This document shows positions 12,228 through 29,616 of a DNA stretch of 64,000 bases, piece by piece. This DNA is from Christensenellaceae bacterium. GTDB lineage: Bacteria > Bacillota > Clostridia > Christensenellales > CAG-138. Positions within the stretch are counted from its first letter, which is position 1. Each line of letters starts with the position of its first letter. Under the pieces are notes generated by a model. The model was given only the letters and a program-made list of their open reading frames with translations, searched no databases and had not been told where the DNA came from. The DNA lies in NCBI GenBank assembly GCA_963667795.1, contig OY764017.1, positions 2,356,079 to 2,420,078 of the forward strand. The letters run 5' to 3'. Made by a program: the position numbers and the translations under genes.

Positions 12228-13505
12228 TTATTGTTCGGTCGCTGTCAGCGCGCGTTCGCCGATATCGTGCCGGTAAAACGCGTTTTCAAAGCGAATGTTC
12301 TTCACCGCTTCATAGGCGGCGCACTGTGCTTTGCGCGGTGTGTCACCGACGGCGGTCACACCAAGCACGCGCCCGCCGGAGGTGCGTATTCGCCCGCTTT
12401 CGCATTGGGTTCCCGCGTGATATACAAAAGTGTTTTTTTGAAGACCAGCATCGTTGATCGAAATTTCAAAACCGGTTTCATATTTTGCCGGATAACCCTG
12501 CGAAGCCATCACAACGCAACAGGCCGCGCCGTCTTTTATCCGCACCGGAATATCACAAAGGCGTTCGTCTTCCACGACGAGCATGATTTCGAACAAATCC
12601 GACTCCAGCAACGGCAAAACGACCTGCGTCTCGGGATCGCCGAAACGGCAGTTGTATTCGATGACCTTCGGGCCGTTATCCGTCAGCATTAAACCAAAAT
12701 AGAGACATCCCTTGAACTTGCGGCCTTCCGCGTTCATCGCCCGTATGGTTGGCAAAAAGATACGCTCCATGCATTCTTTTGCGATTGGTTCTGTATAGAA
12801 TGGATTCGGCGCAAGCGCACCCATGCCGCCGGTGTTCGGACCCAAGTCGTTATCAAACGCGCGCTTGTGGTCAAGCGCCGACACCATAGGAATTAGCGTG
12901 CTGCCGTCGGTAAAGGCGAGTACGCTCACTTCGTTGCCGGTTAAAAACTCTTCGATGACGACGCGTCGACCGCTTTGCCCAAGCGCACCTTGCTCCATGA
13001 GCGCGGATATCGCTTGTTTTGCTTCGTCTTCAGTTTGTGCAATAAACACGCCTTTTCCAAGAGCCGGACCATCGGCTTTTACAACGGTTGGGTACGGAAT
13101 TGTGGAAAGGTACGCGTAAGCGTCAGCCGCTTGGTCGAACACCTTGTAAGATGCGGTCGGGATGCTGTACTTTTGCATGAGTTCCTTAGCAAAACTTTTG
13201 CTGCCTTCAATGGCGGCGGCTGCGGCGGAAGGCCCGAAACAGCGAACACCGACACTGCGCAGCCGGTCGCACGCGCCCTGAATCAACGGGTCATCAGGTG
13301 CGACAATCGCAAAAGAAATGTCCTTTTCGAGCGCGAACGCAATGATGCCGTCGATGTCCGTTGCGGATATCGGGACGCACGTGGCGTGCTCGCTCATGCC
13401 GCCGTTGCCTGGCAAGGCATAAATCGTATCGATGCGCGGGTTTTCAAGCAACTTTTCCAGTATGGCGTGTTCGCGGCCGCCACCGCCGACCAACATGATT
13501 TTCAT
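12228..13505 (-). CDS. purD: Phosphoribosylamine--glycine ligase
   Basis: 'MKIMLVGGGGREHAI', an ATP-grasp core 'VVKADGPALGKGV', and 'GPKVIEYNCRFGDPE'. 425 aa. Confidence 0.9.
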   Translation of the reverse strand: MKIMLVGGGGREHAILEKLLENPRIDTIYALPGNGGMSEHATCVPISATDIDGIIAFALEKDISFAIVAPDDPLIQGACDRLRSVGVRCFGPSAAAAAIEGSKSFAKELMQKYSIPTASYKVFDQAADAYAYLSTIPYPTVVKADGPALGKGVFIAQTEDEAKQAISALMEQGALGQSGRRVVIEEFLTGNEVSVLAFTDGSTLIPMVSALDHKRAFDNDLGPNTGGMGALAPNPFYTEPIAKECMERIFLPTIRAMNAEGRKFKGCLYFGLMLTDNGPKVIEYNCRFGDPETQVVLPLLESDLFEIMLVVEDERLCDIPVRIKDGAACCVVMASQGYPAKYETGFEISINDAGLQKNTFVYHAGTQCESGRIRTSGGRVLGVTAVGDTPRKAQCAAYEAVKNIRFENAFYRHDIGERALTATEQ

Positions 13506-13581
13506 ATCTTTATCTTCACTGATCCTTCGTTTGCATTTGCTTTTTTTCGGATTCCGTCGCCGACAGAGAAACGCTTGTGTT

Positions 13582-14763
13582 TTAATGATGGAACAGACGA
13601 AGTCCGGTAAAGAACATCGCCATGCCGTATTTGTCACAAGCGGCGATCACGTCCGCATCGCGCACCGACCCGCCGGGTTGTGCAATGTAAACGACACCGC
13701 TTTCACGGGCACGGTCAATATTGTCGCCAAAGGGGAAGAATGCGTCGCTGCCGAGAGAAACGCCGGACAACCGGGCGATGTGCTCCGCGCGGTCGCTCTG
13801 CGACAGTGGCTCCGGCTTGCTCGTAAACCAGTTTTTCCAGCCGTTCTCGCTGAATGCGTCGTCGACACGCCCAGAGATGTAGGAGTCGATCAGATTGTCA
13901 CATTCAGGCCGCTTCAGTGTTGGCAGAAACGGCAGGTTCAACACCTTGTCATGGCGGCGCATCCACCAAATATCCGCTTTTTCACCGGCCAGCCGCGTAC
14001 AGTGGATGCGGGACTGTTGGCCTGCACCAACGCCAATGGTCTGTCCGCCGCAGGCAAAGCAGACCGAGTTCGACTGCGTATATTTCAGCGTAATCAGCGA
14101 AAGGACCAGGTCGCGTTTGGCGGACGCGTCCACCGTTTTTTGATTTGTAACGGATTCGCCGAGTAATTCCATGCCGATTTCGGCGGCGTTGCGCGGCTGT
14201 TCAAACGTGACGCCGAACACTTGCTTGCTTTCCATTACAGCGGGCTCGTAACTTTCGTCGATACGAAGCACACCATAGGTTCCTTTGCGTTTGGTTTTTA
14301 ATATTTCAAGAGCTTCCTTCGTATAACCCGGCGCGATCACGCCGTCCGACACTTCGCGCTTGATGATGGACGCGGTAGTAGCGTCGCAAACGTCACTCAA
14401 TGCGATAAAATCGCCAAAGGACGACATGCGGTCGGTTCCGCGTGCCCGTGCATAAGCACAGGCGACGGGCGAAGCGTTTATGCCGTCGATATCGTCCACC
14501 GCACAGGCTTGCAGATCGGTCTCACTCAGCGGCAAACCGAGCGCAGCGCCCGCGGGGCTGACATGCTTGAACGACGCGGCGGCGGGCAAGCCGAGAGACA
14601 TCTTTAATTCTTTTACGAGTTGCCATGCGTTCAGCGCGTCAAGAAAATTGATGTAGCCTGGCCGCCCGTTAAGCACCTCTATGGGCAGTTCGCCACTTTC
14701 CATATAGATACGCGCGGGTTTCTGGTGTGGGTTGCAGCCATATTTTAAAGCGAGTTCTTTCAT
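13582..14763 (-). CDS. purH: AICAR formyltransferase (a PurH lacking the N-terminal MGS-type IMP cyclohydrolase domain)
   Basis: 393 aa. 'KYGCNPHQKPA', 'FKHVSPAG' and 'GGSVRDADVIAACDKYGMAMFFTGLRLFHH' form the AICARFT C-terminal signature. No MGS-like domain is present. Confidence 0.85.
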   Translation of the reverse strand: MKELALKYGCNPHQKPARIYMESGELPIEVLNGRPGYINFLDALNAWQLVKELKMSLGLPAAASFKHVSPAGAALGLPLSETDLQACAVDDIDGINASPVACAYARARGTDRMSSFGDFIALSDVCDATTASIIKREVSDGVIAPGYTKEALEILKTKRKGTYGVLRIDESYEPAVMESKQVFGVTFEQPRNAAEIGMELLGESVTNQKTVDASAKRDLVLSLITLKYTQSNSVCFACGGQTIGVGAGQQSRIHCTRLAGEKADIWWMRRHDKVLNLPFLPTLKRPECDNLIDSYISGRVDDAFSENGWKNWFTSKPEPLSQSDRAEHIARLSGVSLGSDAFFPFGDNIDRARESGVVYIAQPGGSVRDADVIAACDKYGMAMFFTGLRLFHH

Positions 14764-15485
14764 GCTTTGCTTTCCTCCGTAACGTATTGGTTGAACAGTT
14801 TGTCTTCGTATGCACCGCTGCGGACGTCCGTATAGCGCACGTAAAGCGAAATCTTGTTATCCGGATTGAGTGCGTTCCACACGCCGTCCGCGAACGCGTC
14901 GATTCCGTTTGGTATAGCAACGGACTTGGGTTCGCCTGAAAAACTGGGCAATACCGCTCCATCTCCGTCATAGGTGTGAATGAAATGCCCGACGCCTGCT
15001 GCCGGCTCATACGCAAAGGTTTGGCGGAGCGCGGTTTTGCCGTCCGTATCGCCGGATTTGAGGATGGATAGCTTATACGAAAATGCGTCCGCAAAACAGA
15101 GCATACCGCTGATGCGGGGCGTGAAGTGCGGCGCGTCCGGCTCAAAACAGCGCGTTTCAAGCGCCTGCTCAAAGGTTTTTCCAACGGTAAGTGCGTCGCG
15201 AATCGTGTCGGTCTGATCGCCGTTTGTAACAACTGTCACGCCGGGAAACGTGCGAAGCGGTGAATACAGAATCAAGCTCGTATCCGCGGTTTTGCTTGCA
15301 TCCAAAATGTGGATATCGAGGTCATCTCCGTTCTTGACAAATGCGCGGCTGCGACTCCCTGCGCTGCGTCCCATAATAAAATATGCCAGCGCCGCTTTTT
15401 TGCCGTCCGGACTGAAGCCGAGGACGATACCGCGACCCGGATACGTGTTGTTCTCCAGTAAATCATATAAGCTCTGTTGTTCCAT
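14760..15485 (-). CDS. IMP cyclohydrolase, PurO-like (archaeal type)
   Basis: 241 aa. 'NTYPGRGIVLG.SPDGKKAALAYFIMGRS' resembles the PurO / IMP_cyclohyd family. It overlaps the purH start by 4 nt and sits inside the pur operon. Confidence 0.7.
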   Translation of the reverse strand: MEQQSLYDLLENNTYPGRGIVLGFSPDGKKAALAYFIMGRSAGSRSRAFVKNGDDLDIHILDASKTADTSLILYSPLRTFPGVTVVTNGDQTDTIRDALTVGKTFEQALETRCFEPDAPHFTPRISGMLCFADAFSYKLSILKSGDTDGKTALRQTFAYEPAAGVGHFIHTYDGDGAVLPSFSGEPKSVAIPNGIDAFADGVWNALNPDNKISLYVRYTDVRSGAYEDKLFNQYVTEESKA

Positions 15486-16108
15486 TAAAAAACCTCTCTT
15501 TCAAGATGCTTGATTAAATCCGCGCAAACCATTTCTGCCGCCGCGGGGAGCAGTTTCCATTCTGCCTGCTCCATCACACGTCGCTGTAGCGTCTCCGCTG
15601 TATCGCCGGGGAGAACTTCGACGGATTCTTGCATAAGAATACGGCCGCCGTCGGGCACTTCGTTAACCATATGCACCGTTGCGCCCGTTGTGGATTCTCC
15701 GGCGGCAAGCACCGACTCGTGCACCTTCAGACCGTAGAAACCCTTGCCGCAATGCGCGGGAATCATCGAAGGATGCACGTTTAAAATTCGGTCGGGATAT
15801 CGTTCTACAAAAGAAGCGCTCAGTATCTGCATAAAGCCAGCAAGGACGATCACGTTAATTTGATGATCCGAAAGAACGGACAGCAGTTTCTCTTCAAACG
15901 TCTCGCGTGTCGAAAAGTCCGCCCGCGATACCGTTGCGGTCGCGATGTTCGCTTTTTTTGCGCGCTCCAGCGCGTAAGCGCCGGGCTTGTTGGAAACGAC
16001 AAGCGCAAGACTGCCGCTTGTAAAAGCACCGTTTTGTTGTGCGTCGATGAGCGCCTGTAGATTGGTACCGTTTCCCGAAACCAAAACGGCGACGCGTGGT
16101 TTCAGCAT
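15485..16108 (-). CDS. purN: Phosphoribosylglycinamide formyltransferase
   Basis: 'VAVLVSGNGTNLQALID', 'LAGFMQIL' and 'ILNVHPSMIP..G' are present. 207 aa. Confidence 0.9.
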   Translation of the reverse strand: MLKPRVAVLVSGNGTNLQALIDAQQNGAFTSGSLALVVSNKPGAYALERAKKANIATATVSRADFSTRETFEEKLLSVLSDHQINVIVLAGFMQILSASFVERYPDRILNVHPSMIPAHCGKGFYGLKVHESVLAAGESTTGATVHMVNEVPDGGRILMQESVEVLPGDTAETLQRRVMEQAEWKLLPAAAEMVCADLIKHLEREVF

Positions 16109-17112
16109 AGTGTTACGCCTTCCTCGCCTTTCACGACTTCGCCGATGCGATACGCTTCGATGCCTTCGTTGTTTAGTATTTCAATCGCCCGGTCGGCTTG
16201 CGCTTGTGACATGGTCAACGTCATGCCGACGCCCATGTTGAACGTATTGAACATCTCGCGCTCCTCGATATTGCCGAGCGACATCAGTAATTTGAAAATG
16301 GGCAAAACCCGAACGCTTTGCTTTTCGATGCGAGCAGAAAGCCCGGCGGGAAGACTGCGCGGGATATTTTCGTAGAAACCGCCGCCGGTAATATGCGCGG
16401 CGGAGTGTACTTCGACTTTCCCGATCAGCGAAAGTACGGGCTTTACATAGATGCGCGTCGGAGTAAGCAATTCTTCGCCAAGTGTTTTACCAAGCTCGGG
16501 TTTGAATTCGTCAAGCGTTTTGCGCTCCATCGGTATGAGCTTGCGTACTAGCGAAAATCCGTTGGAATGAATGCCGGACGACGCCAGCGCGATGATCGCG
16601 TCGCCTTCGACAACGCGGCTGCTTTCGATCATTGCCGCTTTTTTCGTGATGCCGACGCAAAATCCTGCTAGGTCGTATTCGTCTTCGGTATAGAAGCCCG
16701 GCATTTCGGCGGTTTCGCCGCCGATCAGCGAACAGCCCGCCTGTCTGCAACCGTCCGCAACACCTTTGACGACGGCGGCGGCAACGTCCGGAACCAATTT
16801 TCCGGTCGCTATGTAGTCCAGGAAGAACAGCGGCTTTGCACCGTGACACACCACGTCATTGACGCACATAGCCACACAATCGATTCCGACTGTGTCGTGC
16901 CGCTCCATAACGAATGCGGCTTTGAGCTTTGTACCGACTCCGTCGGTTCCGGAGACGAGCACGTCGTCACCGAGTGCATACATGCCGCCGAACGAACCCA
17001 GCCCCTGCAAAACATTTCCGTCAAATGTGGATTCCGCATACGCCTTCATCTGCTTGACGGCGCTATAGCCCGCTTCCACATTTACGCCGGAATCCTTGTA
17101 TGTAATCGACAT
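16102..17112 (-). CDS. purM: Phosphoribosylformylglycinamidine cyclo-ligase (AIR synthase)
   Basis: 'YKDSGVNVEAG', 'SGTDGVGTKLK', 'DCVAMCVNDVVCHGAKPLFFLDY' and 'GGETAEMPG' are present. 336 aa. Confidence 0.9.
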   Translation of the reverse strand: MSITYKDSGVNVEAGYSAVKQMKAYAESTFDGNVLQGLGSFGGMYALGDDVLVSGTDGVGTKLKAAFVMERHDTVGIDCVAMCVNDVVCHGAKPLFFLDYIATGKLVPDVAAAVVKGVADGCRQAGCSLIGGETAEMPGFYTEDEYDLAGFCVGITKKAAMIESSRVVEGDAIIALASSGIHSNGFSLVRKLIPMERKTLDEFKPELGKTLGEELLTPTRIYVKPVLSLIGKVEVHSAAHITGGGFYENIPRSLPAGLSARIEKQSVRVLPIFKLLMSLGNIEEREMFNTFNMGVGMTLTMSQAQADRAIEILNNEGIEAYRIGEVVKGEEGVTLC

Positions 17113-17122
17113 GACCGTCTCC

Positions 17123-18580
17123 TTATTGATCTAGCAAATTTTTCTTACCGCTTTTCAACAACTCCGATACATCCTCTGGATACTTGCCACTAAAGCAGCC
17201 CGCGCAGAAATTGCATGCCGCACCTTCGACGGTTTTTTTGAGATCATCGAAGCTTAAATAACGCAGGGAATCAGCGCCGATAAACTTGCGGATTTCTTCG
17301 ACGGAGTGACTCGCGCCGATAAGCTGTTCGTGGGACGATGTGTCGATTCCAAAATAGCACGGGTGCGTAACCGGCGGTGAACTCACGCGCAGGTGTACTT
17401 CCTTTGCGCCTGCAGTGCGGAGCATCTCTACGATGCGTTTGCTCGTCGTGCCGCGCACAATGGAATCGTCCACCAGGAGCACGCGCTTTCCGCGCACATT
17501 GCGCTTGAGCACGCTGAGTTTCAGCGAAACGTCCATTTCTCGCCGATCCTGCGAAGGCTCGATGAAGGTGCGCCCCATATAACGGTTTTTTGAAAGTGCG
17601 ACAATGAACGGAAGCCCGGTCTGCTTTGCATAGCCCATTGCCGCAGGGAGCGATGAATCGGGCACGGCTGCTACGACGTCCACGTCGGCGGGCGAAGAGA
17701 TCGCGAGCAGCTCGCCCGCGCGTTCACGCGCTTTGTGTACCGAAATACCGTCGATGTCGGAATCCGGTCGGGCAAAATACACATACTCAAAAATACAAAG
17801 CGCTGTATCCGAAGCGTGCACCGCCTGATGCGACTTTAAGCCGTGCTGCCCGACTGCGATGATTTCGCCCGGGCGAACGTCGCGGATGAATTCTGCGCCG
17901 ATGGTGTCGAACGCGCAGGATTCGGACGCGAACACATATGCGCCATCGATACTTCCGAGCGCGAGAGGACGCATGCCTTTCGGGTCGCGAACGCCAACGA
18001 TCTGATCCCGCGTCATCAACACGAGCGCATAGCTGCCTTGCAGCCGCTCGGTCGCTTTTTCAACGCTTTCGACCAAATTCGAGGTGCCATTCTTTGCAAT
18101 AAGTGCACCGACGACTTCGGAATCGGAGGATGTCTGAAACGTCACGCCTTCGCTTTCAAGCTCTATGCGCAGCTCCTTTGCGTTGATGATATTGCCGTTG
18201 TGCGCAAGCGCAAACGGTCCGTCGGAGGATTCAACGAGCAGCGGCTGCGCGTTGGTCAGCGACGTGTCGCCCGTTGTGGAGTAGCGCACGTGGCCAACGG
18301 CCAGGCTTGCGCCGCTCAATAAAACAAGGCTGTCGCGGAATTTTCCGCTGACCAATCCCATTTCTTTGCAGCATTCGATACGCTTGCCGTGCGCAACGGC
18401 GATGCCTGCGCTCTCCTGGCCGCGGTGCTGCAGCGCAAAGAGCCCGTAATACGCCGCCTCGGCGGCGTCGATTCCACTGCCGTTACAGTAGATGCCAAAA
18501 ACACCGCATTCTTCGTTCATGCGGTCGTGCTCAGGCTTGAGACGATCATATGCTTTTGGCAGGCGTATGCGAAGCGGCAT
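17123..18580 (-). CDS. purF: Amidophosphoribosyltransferase
   Basis: A propeptide is followed by 'NEECGVFGIY' (Ntn Cys). 'VPDSSLPAAMGYA' and 'DDSIVRGTTSK' form the PRT motif, and a C-terminal Cys cluster is present. SD gggaga lies 5 nt before the ATG at 18580. Confidence 0.9.
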   Translation of the reverse strand: MPLRIRLPKAYDRLKPEHDRMNEECGVFGIYCNGSGIDAAEAAYYGLFALQHRGQESAGIAVAHGKRIECCKEMGLVSGKFRDSLVLLSGASLAVGHVRYSTTGDTSLTNAQPLLVESSDGPFALAHNGNIINAKELRIELESEGVTFQTSSDSEVVGALIAKNGTSNLVESVEKATERLQGSYALVLMTRDQIVGVRDPKGMRPLALGSIDGAYVFASESCAFDTIGAEFIRDVRPGEIIAVGQHGLKSHQAVHASDTALCIFEYVYFARPDSDIDGISVHKARERAGELLAISSPADVDVVAAVPDSSLPAAMGYAKQTGLPFIVALSKNRYMGRTFIEPSQDRREMDVSLKLSVLKRNVRGKRVLLVDDSIVRGTTSKRIVEMLRTAGAKEVHLRVSSPPVTHPCYFGIDTSSHEQLIGASHSVEEIRKFIGADSLRYLSFDDLKKTVEGAACNFCAGCFSGKYPEDVSELLKSGKKNLLDQ

Positions 18581-18581
18581 G

Positions 18582-19289
18582 TTATTCTCCCATCAATCGT
18601 TTGATGATCTCGCGGTATGCTTCTTCCACATCGCCAAGGTCGCGACGGAAGCGGTCTTTGTCCAGCTTCTTACCGGTGCTCTTGTCCCAGAAGCGACAGG
18701 TGTCCGGCGAGATTTCGTCGGCAAGAACGACTTTTCCGTCGCAGCGGCCGAATTCAAGTTTGAAATCGATCAGCTCGATTCCGAGTGTATCCAGATATTC
18801 GCGCAGAATATCGTTGATGGCGAAGGAATATTCCTTTACCTTTTCCATTTCTGCGTCCGTTGCAAGGCTCAGCGCGCGGATGTAGTAGGAATTGATGAAC
18901 GGATCGCCGAGTTCGTCGTTTTTGTAGCTATACTCAAGGATAGGGCAGGCCAGCGCGCTGCCCTCCGCAATGCCCATACGCTTGGAAAAACTACCCGCGG
19001 CACGATTGCGAACGATGACCTCGACAGGCAGTATTTCAACGCGTCTGACTGCGGTTTCACGATCGGAAAGCTGCTCGATGTAGTGGGTCGGAATGCCTTT
19101 GCCTTCCAGCAAGCGGAAAAAGTGATTTGACACCTTGTTGTTGACCACGCCTTTTCCGGTGATCGTTCCTTTTTTCAGTCCGTTGAACGCCGTCGCGTCG
19201 TCTTTGTAATCGACGATGACGATCTTGGGATCGTCGGTTGTAAAAACCTTTTTGGCTTTGCCTTCATAAATCTGTTCCAGTTTTTTCAT
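18582..19289 (-). CDS. purC: SAICAR synthase
   Basis: '[11 protein letters not shown]', 'GKG..NN..S..F' and '[14 protein letters not shown]' are present. 235 aa. Confidence 0.9.
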
Positions 19290-19783
19290 ATAGTTTCAAT
19301 CTCCTTTTGCAGCGATTCATTCGCTTCAATGGTTTTTTTTGCAAGGGTTTGTGCGTGCAGGTCGAGCTGCTTTGCCAAATCTTTGTCCTCCAGCGCAAGG
19401 ATGCGAACAGCGAGTAACGCCGCATTGGCCGCGCCGTCGATGGCGACCGTTGCAACGGGAACACCTCTCGGCATCTGCACGGTGGAAAGCAGTGCGTCGA
19501 GTCCGCCCAGATCGTGCGAACTTGCAGGGACACCGATGACCGGCAGCCGCGTGTGCGAAGCCAGGACACCCGCCAAATGTGCGGCCTTTCCGGCAATCGC
19601 AATCAGAACGCCGTATCCTTCCGCCCCCACACAACGTACAAAATCCACTGTTTCGTTCGGCGTTCGATGGGCCGAAAGGACACGCGCCGAGGACGGAACA
19701 CCGAAATCGGACAGCGTTTGAAGCGCATCCTTTGCAAGCGGCAAATCCGAAGCGCTTCCCATGACGACGGCAACTTTTTTCAT
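19286..19783 (-). CDS. purE: 5-(carboxyamino)imidazole ribonucleotide mutase
   Basis: The start is at [14 protein letters not shown] (SD ggagg). 'SAHRTP' and '[13 protein letters not shown]' are present. 165 aa. Confidence 0.9.
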
Positions 19784-19831
19784 TTTAAATTTCCTCCATA
19801 CAATCAAAATAAGCCTGTCGTAACACAAGGC

Positions 19832-20557
19832 TTAAAATTTCATTCGTAACAGCGTATGCTTGATTACGCCGCCGATGTAGTACTGCGGCGAATACAAGAT
19901 CGGCATGCCTTCCTTGTCGTAATCCAGTTCGTCAAGATAGAGAAGCGGCGCACCCTCGTTCACGAGGAGTATCTTCGCAAGTTCGGCGCTTGCAATGGCG
20001 GGCTGCACTTCCGTAATGTCCATGTGCGGTTCAAGGTCGCAGTATTCTTTCAGGAACGAGAAGATCGGTTTTGCCAGAGCCTCCTCCGAAAATGCTTTCC
20101 GTTTTACAAGAGAGAGCGGAATGTAATCCTCGCAGAAAATGGCGGGATTACCGTCTGCCCCGATCAACCGAACGGCGCGCAGGACCGCGTCGCCTTCGGA
20201 TATTGCAAGACGCGCGGCAACGTTTTTCGCAGCCGGGAGCGTTTCGTGACTGGAAAGCAGTAGACTCGGCGTATAACCGGACTGGGCGATCATGTCCATA
20301 AACTCGATCTCCATGTCCATGCGCACTTTCACAGTTAGCACGTGCCGGTTGATCATTGTTCCGACACCCTGCCGCCTGCTGATGAATCCTTCCCGCTCAA
20401 GCTGCGCGAGGCTGTCACGCAGCTGAGTCCGGCTGATGTCCAACCGCTCGGCGAGGACATCCTCTCTTGGCAGCATGTTGGAATAGCGGTATACGCCGTC
20501 CTTCATTTCCTGGAGCAACCGAAGTCGCACGGATTGCATCTGCGTGGTTTTGTTCAT
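19832..20557 (-). CDS. GntR-family (HutC subfamily, UTRA effector domain) transcriptional regulator
   Basis: The start is at MNKTTQMQ (SD ggagg). The winged HTH is 'LPREDVLAERLDISRTQLRDSLAQLEREGFISRRQGVGTMI'. The C-terminal ~150 aa are UTRA-like. Confidence 0.8.
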   Translation of the reverse strand: MNKTTQMQSVRLRLLQEMKDGVYRYSNMLPREDVLAERLDISRTQLRDSLAQLEREGFISRRQGVGTMINRHVLTVKVRMDMEIEFMDMIAQSGYTPSLLLSSHETLPAAKNVAARLAISEGDAVLRAVRLIGADGNPAIFCEDYIPLSLVKRKAFSEEALAKPIFSFLKEYCDLEPHMDITEVQPAIASAELAKILLVNEGAPLLYLDELDYDKEGMPILYSPQYYIGGVIKHTLLRMKF

Positions 20558-20583
20558 AATGGGAGTGCCTCCGGTCTTTAAAT

Positions 20584-20603
20584 GTATTACCAATATGTAA
20601 TAC
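20584..20603. promoter_or_regulatory. Perfect inverted repeat GTATTAC-N6-GTAATAC, a candidate GntR/HutC operator
   Basis: Read directly from the sequence. It has the GT..AC architecture typical of GntR operators and lies between the predicted promoter and the SD of the GntR gene. Confidence 0.5.
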
Positions 20604-20616
20604 CAATTCGGGTTTG

Positions 20617-20645
20617 ACTTTAGCATATTTTATTCGGTTTGTAAA
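20617..20645 (-). promoter_or_regulatory. Sigma-70-like promoter for the GntR gene (TTTACA-17-TAAAGT with TGn)
   Basis: The minus strand reads tttacaaaccgaataaaatatgctaaagt. Confidence 0.45.
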
Positions 20646-21061
20646 GCAATCCATGGATGTATTTTTTAGTATTTTGCAAGGTGTGAAAAAGACTGTTTTT
20701 GCTCGGCGTGAATGGATTTGTGTTACCCGCTCAAAGGGTTTGCGGCTGCTGGCGAAAAAACAACAAAACGGGTAAATATACAGGCAGGGAGTTTTTCATC
20801 AATAACGAGTTTGAACAGACACCCCGGTGAACAACAAAAATCTACTGATTTGCTTGGAAAACGGGATGAATATTCTGTCGCTCAAAAGCTAATAATCGCG
20901 GCGATTGTCATAAAAGCATAAATATTTATTATTAATGCATAATTATAATTAGCTTTCCTCTTGCTTAAAGGTGTGTTATATTACTCGCTAAGAAAGAGTA
21001 GCAGCCGTGGAAAACGGACTGCGACAGATAGCGACGATGATATGCCGAGGGGGCGATAAGA

Positions 21062-22150
21062 GTGGAAAAACAGAGATATCTCACCCTGGAAGACGGACGG
21101 GTCTTCAAGGGAAAAGCATTTGGCGCCAACGGAAGGGTCGAGGGTGAAATTGTTTTCACAACGGCCATGACCGGGTATTTGGAGACGTTGACCGATCCAA
21201 GCTATTATGGGCAAATGGTTGTTCAAACGTTTCCTTTGATCGGAAATTACGGGGTTATTCCTTCCGATTTTGAGGGAAAAGCTCCTGCGTTAAAAGCGTA
21301 TATCGTTCGTGATTGGTGTCATGTGCCTTCAAACTTTCGCAGTGAAGAAGACCTTGACGCCTTTTTGTTATCAAGCGGCGTTGTGGGGCTTTGGAATATT
21401 GACACGCGTGCACTCGTTAAGATCATTCGCGAACACGGCGTGATGAATGCGGTGATCTCCGATAAGCCCGAAACGGACGTACAGTCGCTGAAAAGATTAA
21501 AATCCTATCGTATCGAAAACGCGGTGAATTTTGTCAGCTGCCCGTCGACCGAGACAATGCGCACCGGGGACGGCAAGCGTAACGTTGTTCTTTGGGATTT
21601 CGGCGCAAAGCGGAACATCCAAAACGAACTAATCAAGCGCGGATGCAATGTAACGAACGTTCCGGCAAACACTACGGCGGCGGCTATCCTCGCGTTGAAA
21701 CCGGACGGCGTAATGCTATCCAACGGACCGGGAGACCCCGCCGATAACACCGGCGTGATACGTGAACTGACAGAACTTTTCAACACGAAAACGCCGATTT
21801 TCGGCATATGCCTTGGTCATCAGCTGCTTGCGTTGGCACGCGGCGGACAGACGATGAAGTTGAAATACGGACATCGTGGCGCAAACCAACCCGTGCAGGA
21901 GACCACGACAAGCAAGGTTTATATAACAAGCCAAAATCACGGCTATGCCGTAACGACGGACGACGTGCTGCCGAAGAACGCAGCGGTCAGCTTTTTAAAT
22001 CTCAACGACGGTACCTGTGAAGGACTGGATTATCTTGACATGCCTGCATTTTCCGTACAGTTCCATCCGGAAGCCTGCGGAGGCCCGTTGGACACACGCT
22101 ATCTGTTCGACCGGTTTATCGAACTGATGGATACGCAAGCGAAAGCATAG
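21062..22150 (+). CDS. carA: Carbamoyl-phosphate synthase small (glutaminase) subunit
   Basis: GTG start. 'LEDGRVFKGKAFGA', 'FTTAMTGYLETLTDPSY', 'GICLGHQLL' and 'HG.N.PV' are present. 362 aa. Confidence 0.9.
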   Translation: MEKQRYLTLEDGRVFKGKAFGANGRVEGEIVFTTAMTGYLETLTDPSYYGQMVVQTFPLIGNYGVIPSDFEGKAPALKAYIVRDWCHVPSNFRSEEDLDAFLLSSGVVGLWNIDTRALVKIIREHGVMNAVISDKPETDVQSLKRLKSYRIENAVNFVSCPSTETMRTGDGKRNVVLWDFGAKRNIQNELIKRGCNVTNVPANTTAAAILALKPDGVMLSNGPGDPADNTGVIRELTELFNTKTPIFGICLGHQLLALARGGQTMKLKYGHRGANQPVQETTTSKVYITSQNHGYAVTTDDVLPKNAAVSFLNLNDGTCEGLDYLDMPAFSVQFHPEACGGPLDTRYLFDRFIELMDTQAKA

Positions 22151-22202
22151 CGGACAAACGACATATAAAGAGTTTTTGACGCATACGGAAGGAGAAAACA
22201 GT

Positions 22203-25200
22203 ATGCCCCTGAATAAAGATGTGAAGCGCGTTATGGTCATCGGTTCCGGCCCGATCGTCATCGGTCAGGCTGCGGAGTTTGACTATGCGGGAACGCAGGC
22301 CTGCCGCGCGCTGAAAGAAGAAGGACTGGAAGTGATCCTTGTCAACTCCAATCCGGCAACCATCATGACCGATCAGGCTATGGCGGATTGCATTTATATC
22401 GAGCCGCTGACGCTGACCACCGTAAAGCGCATCATAGAAAAAGAGAAGCCGGACAGCCTGCTTTCCACGCTTGGCGGACAGACGGGACTGACGCTTTCCA
22501 TGCAGCTTGCGGAGGAAGGTTTTCTTGAAAAACACGATGTGAAGCTGCTTGGCGCAAACCCGGAAACGATTGCGAAAGCTGAAGACCGACAACTGTTTAA
22601 GGACGCGATGCTTTCTATTGAAGAGCCGATCATTCCATCCAAGGTGGTGACGGATGCAATGGCCGCGCTGGAATACGCCGAAGAGATCACATATCCGGTG
22701 ATCGTACGTCCGGCGTTCACGCTTGGCGGTTCCGGCGGCGGAATCGCGCAGACGCGCGACGAGCTGAAGAAAATTGCGGAGAGCGGACTTCGCGCGTCGC
22801 CGATCACCCAGATTCTTGTTGAAAAATGCGTCTCCGGCTGGAAAGAGATCGAGTTTGAAGGCATGCGGGATAAAAACGGCAACGTCATCACGATCTGCAG
22901 TATGGAAAACTTTGATCCGGTCGGTGTGCACACGGGTGACAGCATTGTCATTGCACCTGCGGTCACGCTTGCCGACCGGGAATACCAGATGCTCCGCTCC
23001 GCCACGCGAAAAATCATCGATACGCTTGGCATTGAAGGCGGATGCAATTGCCAGTTTGCATTGAACCCGAACAGCTTTGAGTATGCGGTCATCGAAGTCA
23101 ACCCGCGCGTGTCGCGTTCTTCCGCACTGGCTTCCAAGGCGACGGGATACCCGATTGCGAAAGTCGCGGCAAAGATCGCGATCGGTTATACGCTGGACGA
23201 AATCAAAAACGCAGTGACGGGTAAAACCTCCGCGTGCTTTGAGCCTGCGCTCGACTATGTTGTGGTCAAGCTGCCGAAATGGCCGTTTGATAAGTTTATC
23301 CATGCCAAGCGGACGCTGGGTACGCAAATGAAAGCGACCGGCGAGGTCATGGCCATCGGTCCGACGTTTGAGCAGGCGATTATGAAAGCCGTACGCGGCG
23401 CGGAGATTTCGCTGGACAGCCTGAATCTGCCGAAGCTTGCCGAAAAATCGACGGACGAATTGAGGGCGTTGCTGCACACTTGCGACGACGAACGGCTGTT
23501 TGTGACATTTGCGGCGCTCAAGCGTGGCGTTTCAGCCGACGAAATCGGCTCGATTACGACGATTGACCGTTGGTTTTTGCATAAACTGCGCCACCTTGCG
23601 GAGTTTGAATTGGAACTCGAACAAGAAGGATTGTCGAATGAACGCTATTACGAAGGCAAAACGCTTGGATATCCCGACAACGTCCTTGCACGCATCTCCG
23701 GCGACCCGATCAAGCAACACCTGTCTGCGGGATACCGCATGGTGGATACCTGCGCCGCGGAATTTGAGGCGCAGACGCCGTATTTTTACGCGGATTACGG
23801 CTGCGAAAATGAAGCGGTTGAATTTAACGCCCGTCGGAATTCAGACAAGCGACGTGTGATTGTCTTCGGCTCCGGTCCGATCCGAATCGGTCAGGGAATT
23901 GAGTTCGATTACGCCTCGGTGCACTGCGTCTGGGCGCTCAAGCGTGCGGGGTTCGAGGTGATCATCGTCAACAACAACCCCGAAACCGTCTCTACGGATT
24001 TCGACACCGCCGATAGGCTGTATTTTGAGCCACTGACGGCGGAGGACGTGATGAACGTGATTGAGACGGAGCAACCGTATGGCGTGGTCGTCGCGTTCGG
24101 CGGGCAGACCGCCATCAAGCTCACGCGCCATCTCGTCGACAACGGAGTCCGTATTCTCGGCACATCCGCGGACAGCATCGACGCGGCAGAAGATCGCGAA
24201 CGTTTCGATGCGCTGCTGGAGCAACTTCATATCAAACGTCCGAGCGGGCTCACGGTCAAAACAGCGGAGCAGGCGCTTGTTGCTGCAAAGGAACTTGGTT
24301 ATCCGGTGCTCATCCGCCCGTCCTACGTGCTTGGCGGACAAAACATGATCATAGCCTTTAGCGACGAGGACGTTCGCGAATACATGGGCATCATCCTGCG
24401 GCAGGGCATCGACAACCCGATTTTGATCGACCAGTACCTGATGGGGACGGAGATCGAGGTCGACGCGATCTGCGACGGAGAGGATATCCTGATTCCCGGC
24501 ATCATGGAACATATCGAGCGCGCGGGCGTGCACTCGGGGGACTCCATCGCCGTCTATCCGGCGTGGAATCTCAACGGTCCGCTGATCGAGCGTATCATCG
24601 ACCACTCCAAACAGCTGGCGTTGGCGCTCCATACGCGTGGACTGATCAATATCCAATACGTGATTTATGAAAACGAGATTTTCGTCATCGAAGTTAACCC
24701 GCGCTCGTCCCGGACGGTCCCGTACATCAGCAAAGTGACGGGCGTGCCGATGGTCGATCTTGCGACGCGCGCGATGTTGGGTGAACGCCTGGGCGATATG
24801 GGATTCGGCACCGGACTGTACCGGACGCCGCCGTATGTTGCGGTTAAGGTGCCGGTCTTCTCGTTTGAAAAACTTGCGGACGTCGACACGTTGCTCGACC
24901 CGGAGATGAAGTCCACTGGTGAGGTGCTGGGCATCGGCAAAACGCGTGACGAAGCGCTCTACAAAGGGCTTGTCGCCGCCGGATACAAGATGAAAAGGCG
25001 CGGCGGTTTGCTCGTTACCGTGCGGGACAGCGACAAGAGCGAGATTACAGATGCGGTGCGAAAATTTGTCGACCAGGGATTCACCGTGTATGCAACAAAA
25101 GGTACGGCGCAGGCCATCCGCGACGCGGGCATGGCTGTAACGGAAGTAAAGAAACTGCATGAATCGTCCGACAACATTATTACGCTTATGGAAAGCGGTG

Positions 25201-26243
25201 AAGTGGACTACATCATCTCCACATCGTCGAAAGGTCGGATTCCGTCCAGGGACAGCGTCAAAATTCGCCGAAAAGCGATTGAGCGCGCAATCCCTTGCAT
25301 CACGTCCGTCGATACGGCAAATGCACTTGCAGACAGCCTTCGGAGTCGCTTTACCCAGCATAGTACCGAGCTTGTGGACATCAACCACATGCGTACGGAG
25401 AAGATGCGGCTGAATTTCACCAAAATGAACGGTACAAGCAACGACTACATCTATTTCAGCTGCTTCGACCAACAGATCGACGCGCCGGAGTCGCTGAGCG
25501 TGTATCTTTCCGATCCGCATAGCGGTGTTGGCGGCGACGGTGTGATCCTGATCTGTCCGTCGGACATTGCGGACGCGAAGATGCGCATTTTCAACCGTGA
25601 CGGAAGCGAAGGCAAGATGTGTGGAAACGGCATCCGCTGCGTTGGCAAATACTTGTATGACAACGGGTTTACGAACAAAACAGACCTGACGATTGAAACG
25701 CTGAGCGGAAACAAGCATTTGCGACTCTATGTGCGCGGCGGAAAGGTTAAGTCCGTTACCGTGGACATGGGCAAGGCGGAGCTTACGCCGGGAAATATCC
25801 CCGTACGGCTGGAAGGCGACCGCGTTGTCGGCAAAGCGATAGGGATTGAAGGGGAACTGTTCGAAATCACTTGTGTCTCTATGGGCAATCCGCACTGCGT
25901 CGTTTTTAAAGACAACCTCGATTTACTGGAGATCGGCAAGATAGGCCCTGCGTTTGAAAACGCGTCGCTCTTCCCAGAGCAGGTGAATACGGAGTTCGTC
26001 AAGGTGATCGACAGTCACACGCTCAAAATGCGCGTTTGGGAGCGTGGCAGCGGGGAGACGCTGGCCTGCGGTACCGGCGCGTGCGCGGCCGTGGTCGCCG
26101 CGGTGGAAAACGGATTCTGCGAAAAAGGCGAGGATATTACGGTTCGACTGCGCGGCGGAGACCTGCTGGTGCGTTATACCGACGAGACAGTGTTGATGAC
26201 GGGCGACGCAAGAAAGAACTTTGAGGGGATCGCAGAATTGTAA
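22203..26243 (+). CDS. carB: Carbamoyl-phosphate synthase large subunit fused in frame to diaminopimelate epimerase (CarB::DapF, 1346 aa)
   Basis: A full CarB of 1067 aa spans 22203-25403. It has two ATP-grasp halves ('VMVIGSGPIVIGQAAEFDYAG' and 'VIVFGSGPIRIGQGIEFDY') and an MGS-like tail. This is followed immediately by ATG at 25404 and a full-length DapF with no intervening stop codon. Confidence 0.85.
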   Translation: MPLNKDVKRVMVIGSGPIVIGQAAEFDYAGTQACRALKEEGLEVILVNSNPATIMTDQAMADCIYIEPLTLTTVKRIIEKEKPDSLLSTLGGQTGLTLSMQLAEEGFLEKHDVKLLGANPETIAKAEDRQLFKDAMLSIEEPIIPSKVVTDAMAALEYAEEITYPVIVRPAFTLGGSGGGIAQTRDELKKIAESGLRASPITQILVEKCVSGWKEIEFEGMRDKNGNVITICSMENFDPVGVHTGDSIVIAPAVTLADREYQMLRSATRKIIDTLGIEGGCNCQFALNPNSFEYAVIEVNPRVSRSSALASKATGYPIAKVAAKIAIGYTLDEIKNAVTGKTSACFEPALDYVVVKLPKWPFDKFIHAKRTLGTQMKATGEVMAIGPTFEQAIMKAVRGAEISLDSLNLPKLAEKSTDELRALLHTCDDERLFVTFAALKRGVSADEIGSITTIDRWFLHKLRHLAEFELELEQEGLSNERYYEGKTLGYPDNVLARISGDPIKQHLSAGYRMVDTCAAEFEAQTPYFYADYGCENEAVEFNARRNSDKRRVIVFGSGPIRIGQGIEFDYASVHCVWALKRAGFEVIIVNNNPETVSTDFDTADRLYFEPLTAEDVMNVIETEQPYGVVVAFGGQTAIKLTRHLVDNGVRILGTSADSIDAAEDRERFDALLEQLHIKRPSGLTVKTAEQALVAAKELGYPVLIRPSYVLGGQNMIIAFSDEDVREYMGIILRQGIDNPILIDQYLMGTEIEVDAICDGEDILIPGIMEHIERAGVHSGDSIAVYPAWNLNGPLIERIIDHSKQLALALHTRGLINIQYVIYENEIFVIEVNPRSSRTVPYISKVTGVPMVDLATRAMLGERLGDMGFGTGLYRTPPYVAVKVPVFSFEKLADVDTLLDPEMKSTGEVLGIGKTRDEALYKGLVAAGYKMKRRGGLLVTVRDSDKSEITDAVRKFVDQGFTVYATKGTAQAIRDAGMAVTEVKKLHESSDNIITLMESGEVDYIISTSSKGRIPSRDSVKIRRKAIERAIPCITSVDTANALADSLRSRFTQHSTELVDINHMRTEKMRLNFTKMNGTSNDYIYFSCFDQQIDAPESLSVYLSDPHSGVGGDGVILICPSDIADAKMRIFNRDGSEGKMCGNGIRCVGKYLYDNGFTNKTDLTIETLSGNKHLRLYVRGGKVKSVTVDMGKAELTPGNIPVRLEGDRVVGKAIGIEGELFEITCVSMGNPHCVVFKDNLDLLEIGKIGPAFENASLFPEQVNTEFVKVIDSHTLKMRVWERGSGETLACGTGACAAVVAAVENGFCEKGEDITVRLRGGDLLVRYTDETVLMTGDARKNFEGIAEL
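25404..26243 (+). other. dapF: DapF (diaminopimelate epimerase) module of the fusion ORF
   Basis: 'MRLNFTKMNGTSNDYIYF', 'MCGNGIRCVGKY', 'VSMGNPHCVVF', 'NTEFV' and 'RVWERGSGETLACGTGACA' include both catalytic Cys motifs. It encodes 279 aa, the length of a stand-alone DapF. Confidence 0.85.
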
Positions 26244-26305: not shown

Positions 26306-26503
26306 ATGCGCCAAGGGTGAAATCCTGCGTGCGAACACAGCCGAATCCATTGAGAAATGCGGGTTTTTGTAATACAATAATCCGTGCGGAATAGCGATCT
26401 GAATATTAGAGAACCAAATCCAATATAGAAACAACAACAATAAGAAAATAGCGCTTTACATGAAATGCATATAAAATTATGCGAACGATTGGGAGCAGAG
26501 TTG

Positions 26504-27499
26504 ATGAGAAAAATTCTACTGTTGACCACAGGCGGCACCATCGCTTCACGAAACGGCGAAAACGGACTTCAGCCGGTTATAAACGCAAGCGAACTATTGC
26601 GTGCGTTTGTTTACGATACGGCGCGCTTTAGCATCACCGCCGTCGGCGTGCTGGATATGGATTCCTCCAATATTCAACCCGAAGAATGGCAGATCATAGC
26701 GAAGAAGATTGAGCAGGAATATCAAAATTACGACGGATTTGTTATCACCCATGGAACCGACACGCTGGCGTATACGGCGTCCGCGCTGAGTTATATGCTG
26801 CGGGATTTGACAAAAAGTGTGGTGTTAACGGGCTCGCAGATCCCAATCGGTCAGGATGTCAGCGACGCACAAACGAACCTGACAACGGCGCTCTGGGCCG
26901 TTGAGGCAGATATCTGGGGCGTATCGGTCGCGTTTAACCGGCGTATCATTCGCGGAACGCGTGCCGTCAAGGTCAGCACCATGAGTTTCGACGCCTTTCA
27001 GAGTGTGAACGCGCCGTATTTGGCACAGATTACGGCGGAAGGAATACATGTTGTGGACGACGGGCATCAGTTTGCCCGTCTGGGCGAATCGTTCACCATT
27101 GCGCCGGATCTTTACAGCAAGGTGTTTTTATTGAAGGTCATACCGGGAACGCAGCCGGACCTGATTGAGAGCCTGCCCGCGTTGGGATACAAAAGCCTTG
27201 TGATCGAAGCCTTTGGCGCAGGCGGTATTCACTATCTGCACAGGAATCTTTTGCATTCGCTGGAACGGCTCATTGAAAATGGCATTTTAGTTGTCATTTG
27301 TAGCCAGTGTCTGTACGATTGCAGCGATTTGACGCTGTATGAAGTGGGACGGCAACTGCTCAATATCGACGTGGTGCCGGCGCTGGATATGACGACCGAA
27401 GCGATCGTTACAAAGCTGATGTGGATATGGGGTCAGACGGACGACTATCAGGAAGCAAAAACGCTGTTTTGCCGAAATTTGGCGGGGGAGATGTCGTAA
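26504..27499 (+). CDS. ansA: L-asparaginase, type I
   Basis: The start is at MRKILLLTTGGTIAS, which holds the catalytic Thr motif. 'ITHGTDTLAYTA' is present. SD gggag. 331 aa. Confidence 0.85.
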   Translation: MRKILLLTTGGTIASRNGENGLQPVINASELLRAFVYDTARFSITAVGVLDMDSSNIQPEEWQIIAKKIEQEYQNYDGFVITHGTDTLAYTASALSYMLRDLTKSVVLTGSQIPIGQDVSDAQTNLTTALWAVEADIWGVSVAFNRRIIRGTRAVKVSTMSFDAFQSVNAPYLAQITAEGIHVVDDGHQFARLGESFTIAPDLYSKVFLLKVIPGTQPDLIESLPALGYKSLVIEAFGAGGIHYLHRNLLHSLERLIENGILVVICSQCLYDCSDLTLYEVGRQLLNIDVVPALDMTTEAIVTKLMWIWGQTDDYQEAKTLFCRNLAGEMS

Positions 27500-27717
27500 A
27501 TACAAATGCGCGAAAGCAGTTGCCGGGCAACAGCATATATAATACAAATGACTATATATAAATATTGCAGGATGACAAGTATTTTTGTTATGTATTATAA
27601 TTATACGTAATTATACATTTTCTTGAATGCCGATAGGTAAAAACAGCATGTTGACGGCGGACTGGTATGACCGAGAATTCGGCAGGCCGGGCGACGCGAC
27701 CGAAGGAGGTTGAGTAC

Positions 27718-29616
27718 GTGTCTAAACTGAAAGATTTAATCCGGTACTTTGGCATGCCATTGGTCGTTGTCGCCATCATGATTACAACATTCATCGCATT
27801 CCGAACGCAAATCGCCTCCGAAATTCAGCAGGGAACGTACCAGATATTGCGGGAGTCATCACTTCAGCAAAAAAACGATGTTGTGAAATATCTAACCATG
27901 GTGGTTCGGAGAGCTGAAATCGTTACGGAATACAACAAAAACACCGGTAAAATTACATTGACGGAGACGCTGAAGACTGAACTTTCCGATAGCGACGTGA
28001 GCGAGGATTCAAGCGTTCGCGTAGGGTATGCTGATATGCAGGGCCGTGTCCTGTATGGCGATACAGACGTAATCGACGTTTCGCAAAAAGAGTGGTTTTG
28101 CTCTGGCTTAAAGGGGAAAAGTGATATTTCATTGTACCCATCTACGGTCAACGGCGGGCGTGACGATGTTTTGATCTCCGTTCCCGCATTTTTGGACGAT
28201 ACCGTAAGCGGCGTCCTGTTTGCAATTCTGCCAAACCACACGGTTTCCAACCTGATTGCGACGACCGCATATGAAGGCAAAGCGGTATCTGGCGTTTGTG
28301 ACACGGAAGGAAATTTAATCTTTACAGAACGGGATTTTGAGTTTGGATATCGTCTGGAAAATGTTTTTAGCCTGATTCAGGATGATTCTTTGGAAAACAG
28401 TTTTACACAGACTTGGTTAAAGCAGGCTATGCGTAACTCGGAAGAGAAAGATTTTTATTTTTACTACGAAGGGGAACGGTACTACACGGTTATCCAGCCT
28501 ATCGGCATTAGGGATTGGTATGTGTTTTCAACTGTCGACGGAACAACGGCCGACACGATCCAACGGCACGTAAGCACGTATGTTTCCTCAATGTTTTTGA
28601 TTGTATTTGCAGTCGGCATTGCAATGATTCTCGAAGCGTTTTTGCACGAAAGAACAACGGTAAAGCGGCTGGAACAAGATAAAGAACTGCTTCGCCAAAG
28701 CAGCGCGCGATATGCTTTGATCAATCGTCTGTCAAACGAAGTGCTCTTCACGGTCAATATGGAGAATGGCAATATTGATTTTAACGACAACTTCGAAACG
28801 ATGTTCGGCTTTTCGCCACCGGAATGCTCCATCGACAACCCGGAGTCGTACACCCAACTGGTGGTTGAAAGTGACCGGCCGCAGTTTATGCGGTTTGTCG
28901 AGCGCATGCTGTCCGGCGCAGCGGAAGCGCAAGAAGAGTTGCGCATGATCAATGCTCGCGGCGTAAGCCGATGGAAGCATCTGGAGATCTATTCGGTTTT
29001 TGACAGTGAAGGACGATCAACAGAAGCCGTGGGCAAAATATCAGATATCCATCGGCAGAAACAGTCGTTGCAGCGCCTTAAGAAGCAAGCGGACAGCGAT
29101 TCTTTGACTGGGCTGCTCAATCGATCCGCAATGGAGCGCTACACGCGGGAGTTTCTTGACGGAGAAGGAAAAGAAACGAAGCATGCATTTTTTATACTGG
29201 ATTTTGATAACTTTAAACAGGTGAACGACACGCTGGGCCATGCAGAAGGCGATCAGATGCTTGTTGCGTTTGCATACGCCGCCAAGCGTTTGTTCCGTAC
29301 GGGAGATCTCATTGCGCGAATCGGCGGGGACGAGTATACGATGCTTATGAAAACGATCGATTCGGATGAAAGCGCGCTTGAAAAAGCCGAACAGATGCGC
29401 AGGGCGATGGGGCGAGTGAGCGCAGAGTTTAAGTTCAATGTGACCGTCAGTATCGGAATTGCGATGTTTGATCGGGATGGTAAAACGTTTGAGGAGCTGT
29501 ACAAAGCCGCGGACGCAGCTCTCTATAACGTCAAGAAATCCGGAAAAGACGATTGCGTATTTTGTAGCGCTGCGGATATAATAACGAAACGGGATAAAAA
29601 CGATACGGAGGATTAA
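27718..29616 (+). CDS. Sensor diguanylate cyclase (N-terminal TM + Cache-like periplasmic domain, PAS, GGDEF)
   Basis: The GTG at 27718 is preceded by ggagg; an alternative ATG lies at 27667. The GGDEF domain runs 'DSLTGLLNR..FILDFDNFKQVND..GH..GD', with the active-site variant 'RIGGDEY' and the I-site 'RTGD' five residues upstream. Confidence 0.85.
   Translation: MSKLKDLIRYFGMPLVVVAIMITTFIAFRTQIASEIQQGTYQILRESSLQQKNDVVKYLTMVVRRAEIVTEYNKNTGKITLTETLKTELSDSDVSEDSSVRVGYADMQGRVLYGDTDVIDVSQKEWFCSGLKGKSDISLYPSTVNGGRDDVLISVPAFLDDTVSGVLFAILPNHTVSNLIATTAYEGKAVSGVCDTEGNLIFTERDFEFGYRLENVFSLIQDDSLENSFTQTWLKQAMRNSEEKDFYFYYEGERYYTVIQPIGIRDWYVFSTVDGTTADTIQRHVSTYVSSMFLIVFAVGIAMILEAFLHERTTVKRLEQDKELLRQSSARYALINRLSNEVLFTVNMENGNIDFNDNFETMFGFSPPECSIDNPESYTQLVVESDRPQFMRFVERMLSGAAEAQEELRMINARGVSRWKHLEIYSVFDSEGRSTEAVGKISDIHRQKQSLQRLKKQADSDSLTGLLNRSAMERYTREFLDGEGKETKHAFFILDFDNFKQVNDTLGHAEGDQMLVAFAYAAKRLFRTGDLIARIGGDEYTMLMKTIDSDESALEKAEQMRRAMGRVSAEFKFNVTVSIGIAMFDRDGKTFEELYKAADAALYNVKKSGKDDCVFCSAADIITKRDKNDTED

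Follow-up and report, generated by a model that had tools for sequence, protein, structure and literature searches.

A single gene, carB::dapF, carried by a Christensenellaceae bacterium on a stretch of 64,000 nucleotides (contig OY764017.1, positions 2,356,079 to 2,420,078 of the forward strand; the whole stretch is referred to here as the window), encodes the complete large subunit of carbamoyl-phosphate synthetase, CarB (aa 1-1067), which runs without stop codon or linker into a complete diaminopimelate (DAP) epimerase, DapF (aa 1068-1346). The open reading frame (ORF) has 1346 codons and occupies positions 22203-26243 of the plus strand. Comparison with its homologues makes it very likely that carB::dapF is a genuine, anciently fused and selected gene for a bifunctional CarB-DapF chain, and both activities are probably intact in the organism of the window. 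The parts of the gene are:

CarB moiety, aa 1-1067: 22203..25403, plus strand; two ATP-grasp halves, oligomerisation domain, MGS-like allosteric domain, C-terminal tail of native length
Junction: 25356..25424, plus strand; CarB tail S-T-E-L-V-D-I-N-H-M-R, 7-residue spacer TEKMRLN, first DapF strand F-T-K-M; free of stop codons
DapF moiety, aa 1068-1346, and stop codon: 25404..26243, plus strand; cysteine codons C1140 at 25620-25622 and C1289 at 26067-26069

The open frame extends from 22176 to the stop codon that ends at 26243, and its likely start is the ATG at 22203: an AGGAG ends 8 nt before this codon, and the MPLN N-terminus is common to the homologues. The CarB part ends with ...VDINHMRTEK; its last codon, AAG at 25401-25403, is directly followed by the ATG at 25404-25406 and then by MRLNFTKMNGTSNDYIYF, and a GGAG is located at 25397-25400, 3 nt 5' of this ATG. 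An earlier note, written from the letters of this DNA, had described a CarB of 1067 aa with two ATP-grasp halves, an oligomerisation region and an MGS-like domain, followed with no intervening stop by a DapF of 279 aa with both catalytic cysteine motifs, whose ATG at 25404 comes right after the last CarB codon and has a 'ggag' 3 nt upstream. Each of these points is confirmed by the sequence, its translation, the protein profiles or the structure alignments described below. The same note placed the AAG codon one substitution away from TAG or TAA: this is correct for TAG, but TAA requires two substitutions. Two long antisense ORFs are found opposite carB on the minus strand, at 23841-25895 (684 aa) and 22116-23477 (453 aa); these are most likely artefacts of codon composition and not genes.

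Both moieties are recognized by the models of their respective families. The CarB moiety scores 1481 bits with the CarB equivalog NF003671 (cut-off 599; protein aa 1-1050, model positions 1-1050 of 1058) and 1436 bits with TIGR01369 (CarB; cut-off 1027); Pfam places in it CPSase_L_D1 and CPSase_L_D2 twice each, CPSase_L_D3 at aa 424-498 and MGS at aa 948-1034, and finds DAP_epimerase (PF01678) in the C-terminal moiety. The latter scores 273.8 bits with the DapF equivalog TIGR00652 (cut-off 114.65; aa 1071-1344, model positions 2-268 of 270), and 109.1 bits, well under the cut-off of 350, with NF038284, the model for bifunctional DapF/glutamate racemases. Since E. coli CarB (1073 aa; residues 1-1060) aligns with window aa 1-1052, and solved DapF chains align from window aa 1067-1071 onward (2otn from aa 1067, E = 5.6e-79), both moieties are considered full length; none of the structure matches is a solved chain spanning both parts. 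The catalytic dyad of DapF, which we take to be Cys73 and Cys217 in the numbering of E. coli and H. influenzae, is kept in the window protein as C1140 in MCGNG and C1289 in ACGTG. Also kept, as N1080, N1131, G1141, N1142, N1229, N1262, E1280, R1281, G1290 and T1291, are all the positions that we assume, from inhibitor complexes of the H. influenzae enzyme, to bind the substrate (N11, N64, G74, N75, N157, N190, E208, R209, G218 and S/T219).

The CarB-DapF architecture is common in public genomes, where it is annotated only by machine: UniRef labels the protein 'multifunctional fusion protein' and NCBI 'carbamoyl-phosphate synthase large subunit'. A full-text search of the literature found no description of a CarB-DapF fusion, and a paper on C. 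thermocellum speaks of separate genes; the earlier statement that there is no precedent for the fusion holds for the literature searched, but not for the databases. In a whole-protein search all of the 120 clusters listed are 1345-1355 aa long and match with 100% coverage and 72-94% identity; together with the window protein they constitute the set of 121 sequences used throughout. No entry had exactly the sequence of the window protein. Named sources among these clusters are Papillibacter cinnamivorans, Sporotomaculum syntrophicum, Syntrophomonas, Dehalobacterium, Christensenellales, Avimonas and Oscillospiraceae. At a clustering level of 50% identity, the protein library represents the fused family by one full-length sequence (P0121) and by fragments that span the junction; the next matches are free-standing DapF proteins of about 280 aa, with 42-56% identity. 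A survey of the GTDB collection, with one genome per species, yielded at least 599 related stretches, of which the best 80 loci were analysed. The frame is open across the junction in 79 of these 80, in ORFs typically of 1340-1370 codons; the taxa include Ruminococcus, Acutalibacter, Neglectibacter, Yeguia, Saccharofermentans and Christensenellaceae, and the fusion could be traced down to about 60% CarB identity.

Some records at the margins of this distribution deserve mention. The fusion also occurs in two records outside the Oscillospirales-type taxa, one titled Treponema sp. from termite gut (L042) and the other Lachnospiraceae bacterium 46-61 (L026); these occurrences could reflect a binning error, a misclassification or horizontal transfer. 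Two shorter proteins (P0182 and P0203) combine partial carbamoyl-phosphate synthase domains with DapF, and are possibly truncated or rearranged CarB fusions. No unfused intermediate, with carB, a stop codon and dapF in succession, was present among the 80 loci: of the close relatives only L071 is unfused, and it lies apart from carB, behind a promoter of its own. The look-up of P0184 in the hunt for such an intermediate led to a contig of 1.7 kb. In a neighbour-joining tree of the DapF domains, built to see whether the fused ones are monophyletic, these fell into separate groups under midpoint rooting, and several of the representatives that appeared free were fragments of fused genes.

The junction itself is conserved in a characteristic way. 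The spacer between the CarB tail and the first DapF strand is 7 residues long in 200 of 200 sequences, while its sequence is freely variable; on its two sides, the CarB tail T-E-L-V-D-I-N-x-M-R is conserved at 87-99% across the fused homologues, and F-x-K-M of the first DapF strand is invariant. The conserved TELVDINxMR tail was also considered as a sign of a role created by the fusion, and was given little weight, as the tail of fused CarB has the same length as that of E. coli CarB. The E. coli tail presumably carries a similar T-E-x-V...M motif. The nearest relative is a syntenic locus (L082, a metagenome contig of 3.9 Mb), in which the pur genes, a GntR regulator, carA, the fusion, an asparaginase and a GGDEF gene follow in the same order. 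Its junction has the identical AAG-ATG, and the surrounding differences are at synonymous third positions: over the 21 codons of aa 1051-1071 there are 0 non-synonymous and 5 synonymous differences (synonymous divergence, dS, about 0.5). The ratio of non-synonymous to synonymous divergence (dN/dS) between the window and this relative is 0.037 for CarB and 0.059 for DapF; pairwise ratios of this kind are usable only for a few close pairs, because dS is saturated in most. Overall, carB::dapF is a single uninterrupted ORF, conserved across species, with purifying selection acting through the junction.

These observations bear directly on the three readings that the earlier note had left standing. 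It had suggested the alignment of orthologous junctions as a check; so aligned, they contain no stop in 79 of the 80 species loci, nor in L082. The first reading, a genuine bifunctional polypeptide, is upheld at the level of the gene by a fused ORF that is conserved in hundreds of genomes under purifying selection. A recent loss of the stop codon, with DapF still made from an internal start, does not agree with a fusion that reaches down to about 60% CarB identity and in which neither the ATG nor the GGAG is conserved; a base-call error is contradicted by the same conservation, and by the identical junction of the independently assembled L082. That carB and dapF are in reality separate genes, joined here by a recent stop-codon loss or by a sequencing or assembly error, has in our estimate almost no chance of being correct: the single substitution that separates AAG from TAG is the sole point in its favour, and it is opposed by hundreds of independent assemblies (the 3.9-Mb contig among them) that are likewise open across the junction, by the synonymous-only differences around the junction and by the strong purifying selection on both halves.

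A different matter is whether the fused protein is accompanied by free DapF, translated from the ATG at 25404 by means of the GGAG. The window has both elements, a methionine is kept at this position in most of its closest relatives, and in three species loci (L001, L013, L043) an ATG or GTG is likewise accompanied by a Shine-Dalgarno-like motif. However, the 3-nt spacing of the GGAG is much shorter than the 8 nt found at the true carB start, and most of the family has lost both the start codon and the motif: at the position of M1068, 60 of the 121 close homologues have methionine and the others V, L, I, S, R, Q, T, E or K, and its codon in the 80 species loci is most commonly CAG (19), with ATG in 11, GTG in 3, and CGT, GGC, ACN and others in the remainder. 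The GGAG is not conserved in the species loci because it arises from Thr-Glu codons, and a promoter scan found no promoter-like site just upstream of 25404. Dual products are in our opinion quite improbable; internal initiation is possible in the window strain, but on this comparison the fused family would not depend on an internal start.

The window protein belongs to the part of the family in which the DapF dyad is intact; about one third of the fused homologues lack one or both of the catalytic cysteines. The states of the dyad (residues at the first and second cysteine positions) are distributed as follows:

Database homologues and window protein (121): C/C 93, S/A 18, G/C 6, A/C 3, S/S 1, S/G 0
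Species loci and window (80): C/C 41, S/A 0, G/C 9, A/C 29, S/S 0, S/G 1
Members of the classes: P0046-P0115 (S/A); P0066, P0100, P0103 (A/C); L038-L080 (A/C, G/C)

Thus the first cysteine is replaced by A, G or S in 28 of the 121 database homologues and in 39 of the 80 species loci, and both are replaced in 19 and in 1, respectively. On a tree based on CarB these losses require at least 15 independent changes. The domains without cysteines remain full length, and N64, G74, N75, N157, N190, E208, R209, G218 and T219 are essentially invariant in every class of dyad, the exception among the binding residues being N11, where half of the A/C class has D. The divergence of DapF relative to that of CarB is almost equal in cysteine-less and intact pairs, and dN/dS is 0.05-0.06 in those cysteine-less pairs for which dS is not saturated. 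In three loci a separate, canonical dapF is present just downstream of the fusion:

L023 (Acutalibacter): free dapF at 7096-7926
L022 (Neglectibacter): free dapF at about 8868-9713
L043 (Acutalibacter): free dapF at about 6843-7703

The one in L023 starts 25 nt past the stop of the fusion, with its own ribosome-binding site. These free proteins are closer to the DapF of the window (62-67% identity) than are the fused domains of their own loci (55-60% identity to the DapF of the window). The fusion of L043, from a metagenome-assembled genome (4276-6171), is peculiar in that the frame through the junction has only 631 codons, with carB interrupted, and the fused DapF is degenerate (S/G dyad, GNPS, WKRG); either decay of this copy or a misassembly could account for it. 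Because domain and binding residues are kept, dN/dS is low, and a free dapF occurs in some loci, all in spite of the cysteine losses, the sequences say that in a large part of the family the fused DapF would be selected for something besides, or instead of, epimerisation. Most of the interest of the family lies, we believe, in this series of cysteine losses rather than in the missing stop codon itself.

The surroundings of the fusion in the window are:

Purine-biosynthesis operon, divergent: 12228-20626, minus strand; purE, purC, purF and purM confirmed
GntR/UTRA-family regulator, heading the purine operon: 19832-20626, minus strand
Promoter-like site, TTGTCA-16-TATTAT: 20905..20932, plus strand; upstream of carA, a consensus match only (10 of 12 positions)
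carA, glutamine-hydrolysing small subunit, 362 aa, GTG start: 21062..22150, plus strand; NF009475, 477.9 bits against a cut-off of 221
Type I asparaginase: 26465-27499, plus strand; downstream of the fusion, with its own promoter-like site at 26350-26378
PAS-GGDEF diguanylate cyclase: 27667-29616, plus strand; downstream of the asparaginase, same order in L082

In at least 34 related loci, and also in L082 and L083, the gene for the small subunit directly precedes the fusion in the same orientation. Since promoter-like sites precede both carA and the downstream asparaginase, the transcription unit would be carA-carB::dapF. The promoter-like site before carA is overlapped by an AT-rich near-palindrome (ATAAATATTTATTATTAATGCATAATTATAATTAG) at about 20925-20955, which resembles what we take to be the consensus of arginine-repressor-type operators. 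An Rfam scan that covered the whole window gave no element, neither a riboswitch nor a leader before carA. By synteny with L082, the purine operon continues with purN, IMP cyclohydrolase, purH and purD. An asparaginase after the fusion is a feature that L082 shares and that all 80 species loci lack. In Sporotomaculum syntrophicum (L083, 1-20000) and Papillibacter cinnamivorans (L084, 1-23200) the fusion is found amid genes of nitrogen assimilation and glutamine amidotransferases, namely glutamate synthase parts, glnA (glutamine synthetase), an ANTAR regulator, amt (ammonium transporter) with P-II, asparagine synthase, NAD synthetase, purF, guaA and purL; carA and the fusion are separated by guaA in the case of Papillibacter.

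These results are consistent with the following scheme. The fusion would have a single origin, since its junction falls at the same residue in every member and has no added linker; and because the linker is absent and the CarB tail is of native length, this origin may have been simply the loss of the carB stop directly before the dapF start, between two abutting genes. As a two-gene operon, carA and carB::dapF would produce, besides the small subunit, a polypeptide of about 150 kDa, whose first 1067 residues would make carbamoyl phosphate with CarA, for the synthesis of arginine and pyrimidines, while its last 279 residues would act as DAP epimerase, converting LL-DAP to meso-DAP for lysine and peptidoglycan. 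The fusion may be kept for a fixed 1:1 co-expression, for a structural or regulatory integration of DapF with the synthetase, or for both; such an integration is suggested by the invariant length of the spacer and by relatives in which the catalytic cysteines are gone and the domain remains. More conservatively, two abutting genes may have lost the stop between them by neutral change, and the fusion may then have become entrenched, with co-expression fixed.

Several points weigh against this scheme. That the product is one chain, and that it retains both activities, is inferred from the level of the gene, and the window keeps an ATG with a GGAG 3 nt upstream, such that some internal initiation is possible there. 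We know of no metabolic link between carbamoyl-phosphate synthesis and DAP epimerisation, and therefore any selective advantage of the fusion is a conjecture. Neither carB nor dapF occurs a second time in the 64-kb window. Structural integration of DapF with the synthetase is neither supported nor contradicted by modelling: AlphaFold2 models of aa 925-1346 (predicted local distance difference test, pLDDT, 84.9; predicted template modelling score, pTM, 0.64; junction pLDDT below 50) and of aa 553-1346 (pLDDT 77.8, pTM 0.58; junction pLDDT 52-70), truncated and based on shallow alignments, fold the individual domains confidently, but junction and relative orientation are of low confidence, and no confident packing of CarB against DapF is seen in either one.

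The alternative that has to be taken most seriously assigns the DapF domain a mainly non-catalytic role in the synthetase, as an oligomerisation scaffold or as a sensor of a DAP-type ligand; any epimerase activity of the domain would then be incidental or dispensable, and the working enzyme would be encoded elsewhere. The cysteine replacements described above and their repeated occurrence on the CarB tree point in this direction, as do the essentially invariant substrate-binding residues in all classes, the slow divergence of domains without cysteines (about as slow as that of intact ones), the free canonical dapF downstream of three fusions and the invariant length of the spacer. There is also an example of DapF acting through protein contact: E. 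coli DapF moonlights as an activator of RppH, by contact alone and not through its own catalysis (PMC4227774, PMC6061791), although that association is non-covalent and with a different partner. Alternative epimerases such as DapF2 exist, which could take over catalysis (bioRxiv 10.1101/2024.10.14.618325; the same study offers a DAP-secretion assay for epimerase activity). Against this alternative, neither cysteine and none of the binding residues has been lost in the window protein or in any of its close relatives (80-94% identity), the DapF score of the window is far above the equivalog cut-off, no ligand effect on the synthetase is known, and the AlphaFold2 models lack a confident interface; a mainly non-catalytic role is rather unlikely. 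With a similarly small share of our confidence, DapF may have become, by recruitment, a module integral to the Clostridial synthetase, as an element for regulation or for the binding of a DAP-type ligand, or as one for oligomerisation, with the epimerase chemistry optional; the domain of the window would then be both enzyme and module. Such a recruitment would explain why domain, pocket and exact spacer length persist under strong selection even in cysteine-less lineages, why some genomes have a separate dapF next door, and why the neighbourhood in Sporotomaculum and Papillibacter is one of nitrogen and glutamine-amidotransferase genes.

A bifunctional CarB-DapF chain, which is the reading we prefer, can be compared with several known systems. 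With free-standing CarB (E. coli; PDB 1bxr, 1jdb, 1a9x) it shares the order of the domains, the carA partner upstream and a tail of native length; the E. coli protein ends after this tail, whereas that of the window continues into a second enzyme. With free-standing DapF (TIGR00652; PDB 2otn, 9mro, 1bwz, 2gke) it shares a full-length match, the dyad and the binding residues, and free-standing relatives are 42-67% identical to the DapF of the window. In contrast to these, fused DapF has no start of its own in most members of the family, is joined to CarB through the 7-residue spacer, and in many homologues, though not in the window, has one or both cysteines replaced. DapF is likewise joined to a biosynthetic enzyme in P0249 (687 aa, class I/II aminotransferase-DapF) and P0224 (776 aa, DapF-Mur ligase). 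Judged by Pfam domains alone, the partners in these two proteins appear to catalyse adjacent steps of the DAP and peptidoglycan pathways, whereas CarB shares no intermediate with DapF: as the other partners look like pathway neighbours, CarB is an odd one. In the CAD and URA2 proteins of eukaryotes, other enzymes likewise follow the synthetase C-terminally on the same polypeptide. The enzymes added in CAD, however, are those that act next in pyrimidine synthesis, and the chain includes the small subunit too; in the window the small subunit is a protein by itself, and the pathway of the added enzyme is unrelated.

CarB and DapF are textbook, essential enzymes, and the allosteric domain of the synthetase is a classic system. 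Their union is a fusion across unrelated pathways that pathway logic would not have predicted, and many lineages of Clostridia have retained it, abundant taxa of gut and rumen among them. There are practical consequences: as annotation pipelines label the 1346-aa protein as CarB only, pathway reconstructions may report dapF as missing, and conversely a domain without cysteines may be counted as an active epimerase. The family also provides a natural series that leads from an intact dyad to the loss of one cysteine and then of both, together with genomes that have an extra free dapF; this series could be used to study how an enzyme domain turns into a non-catalytic part of another enzyme, and would allow a test of whether the status of cell-wall and lysine precursors feeds into the supply of carbamoyl phosphate.

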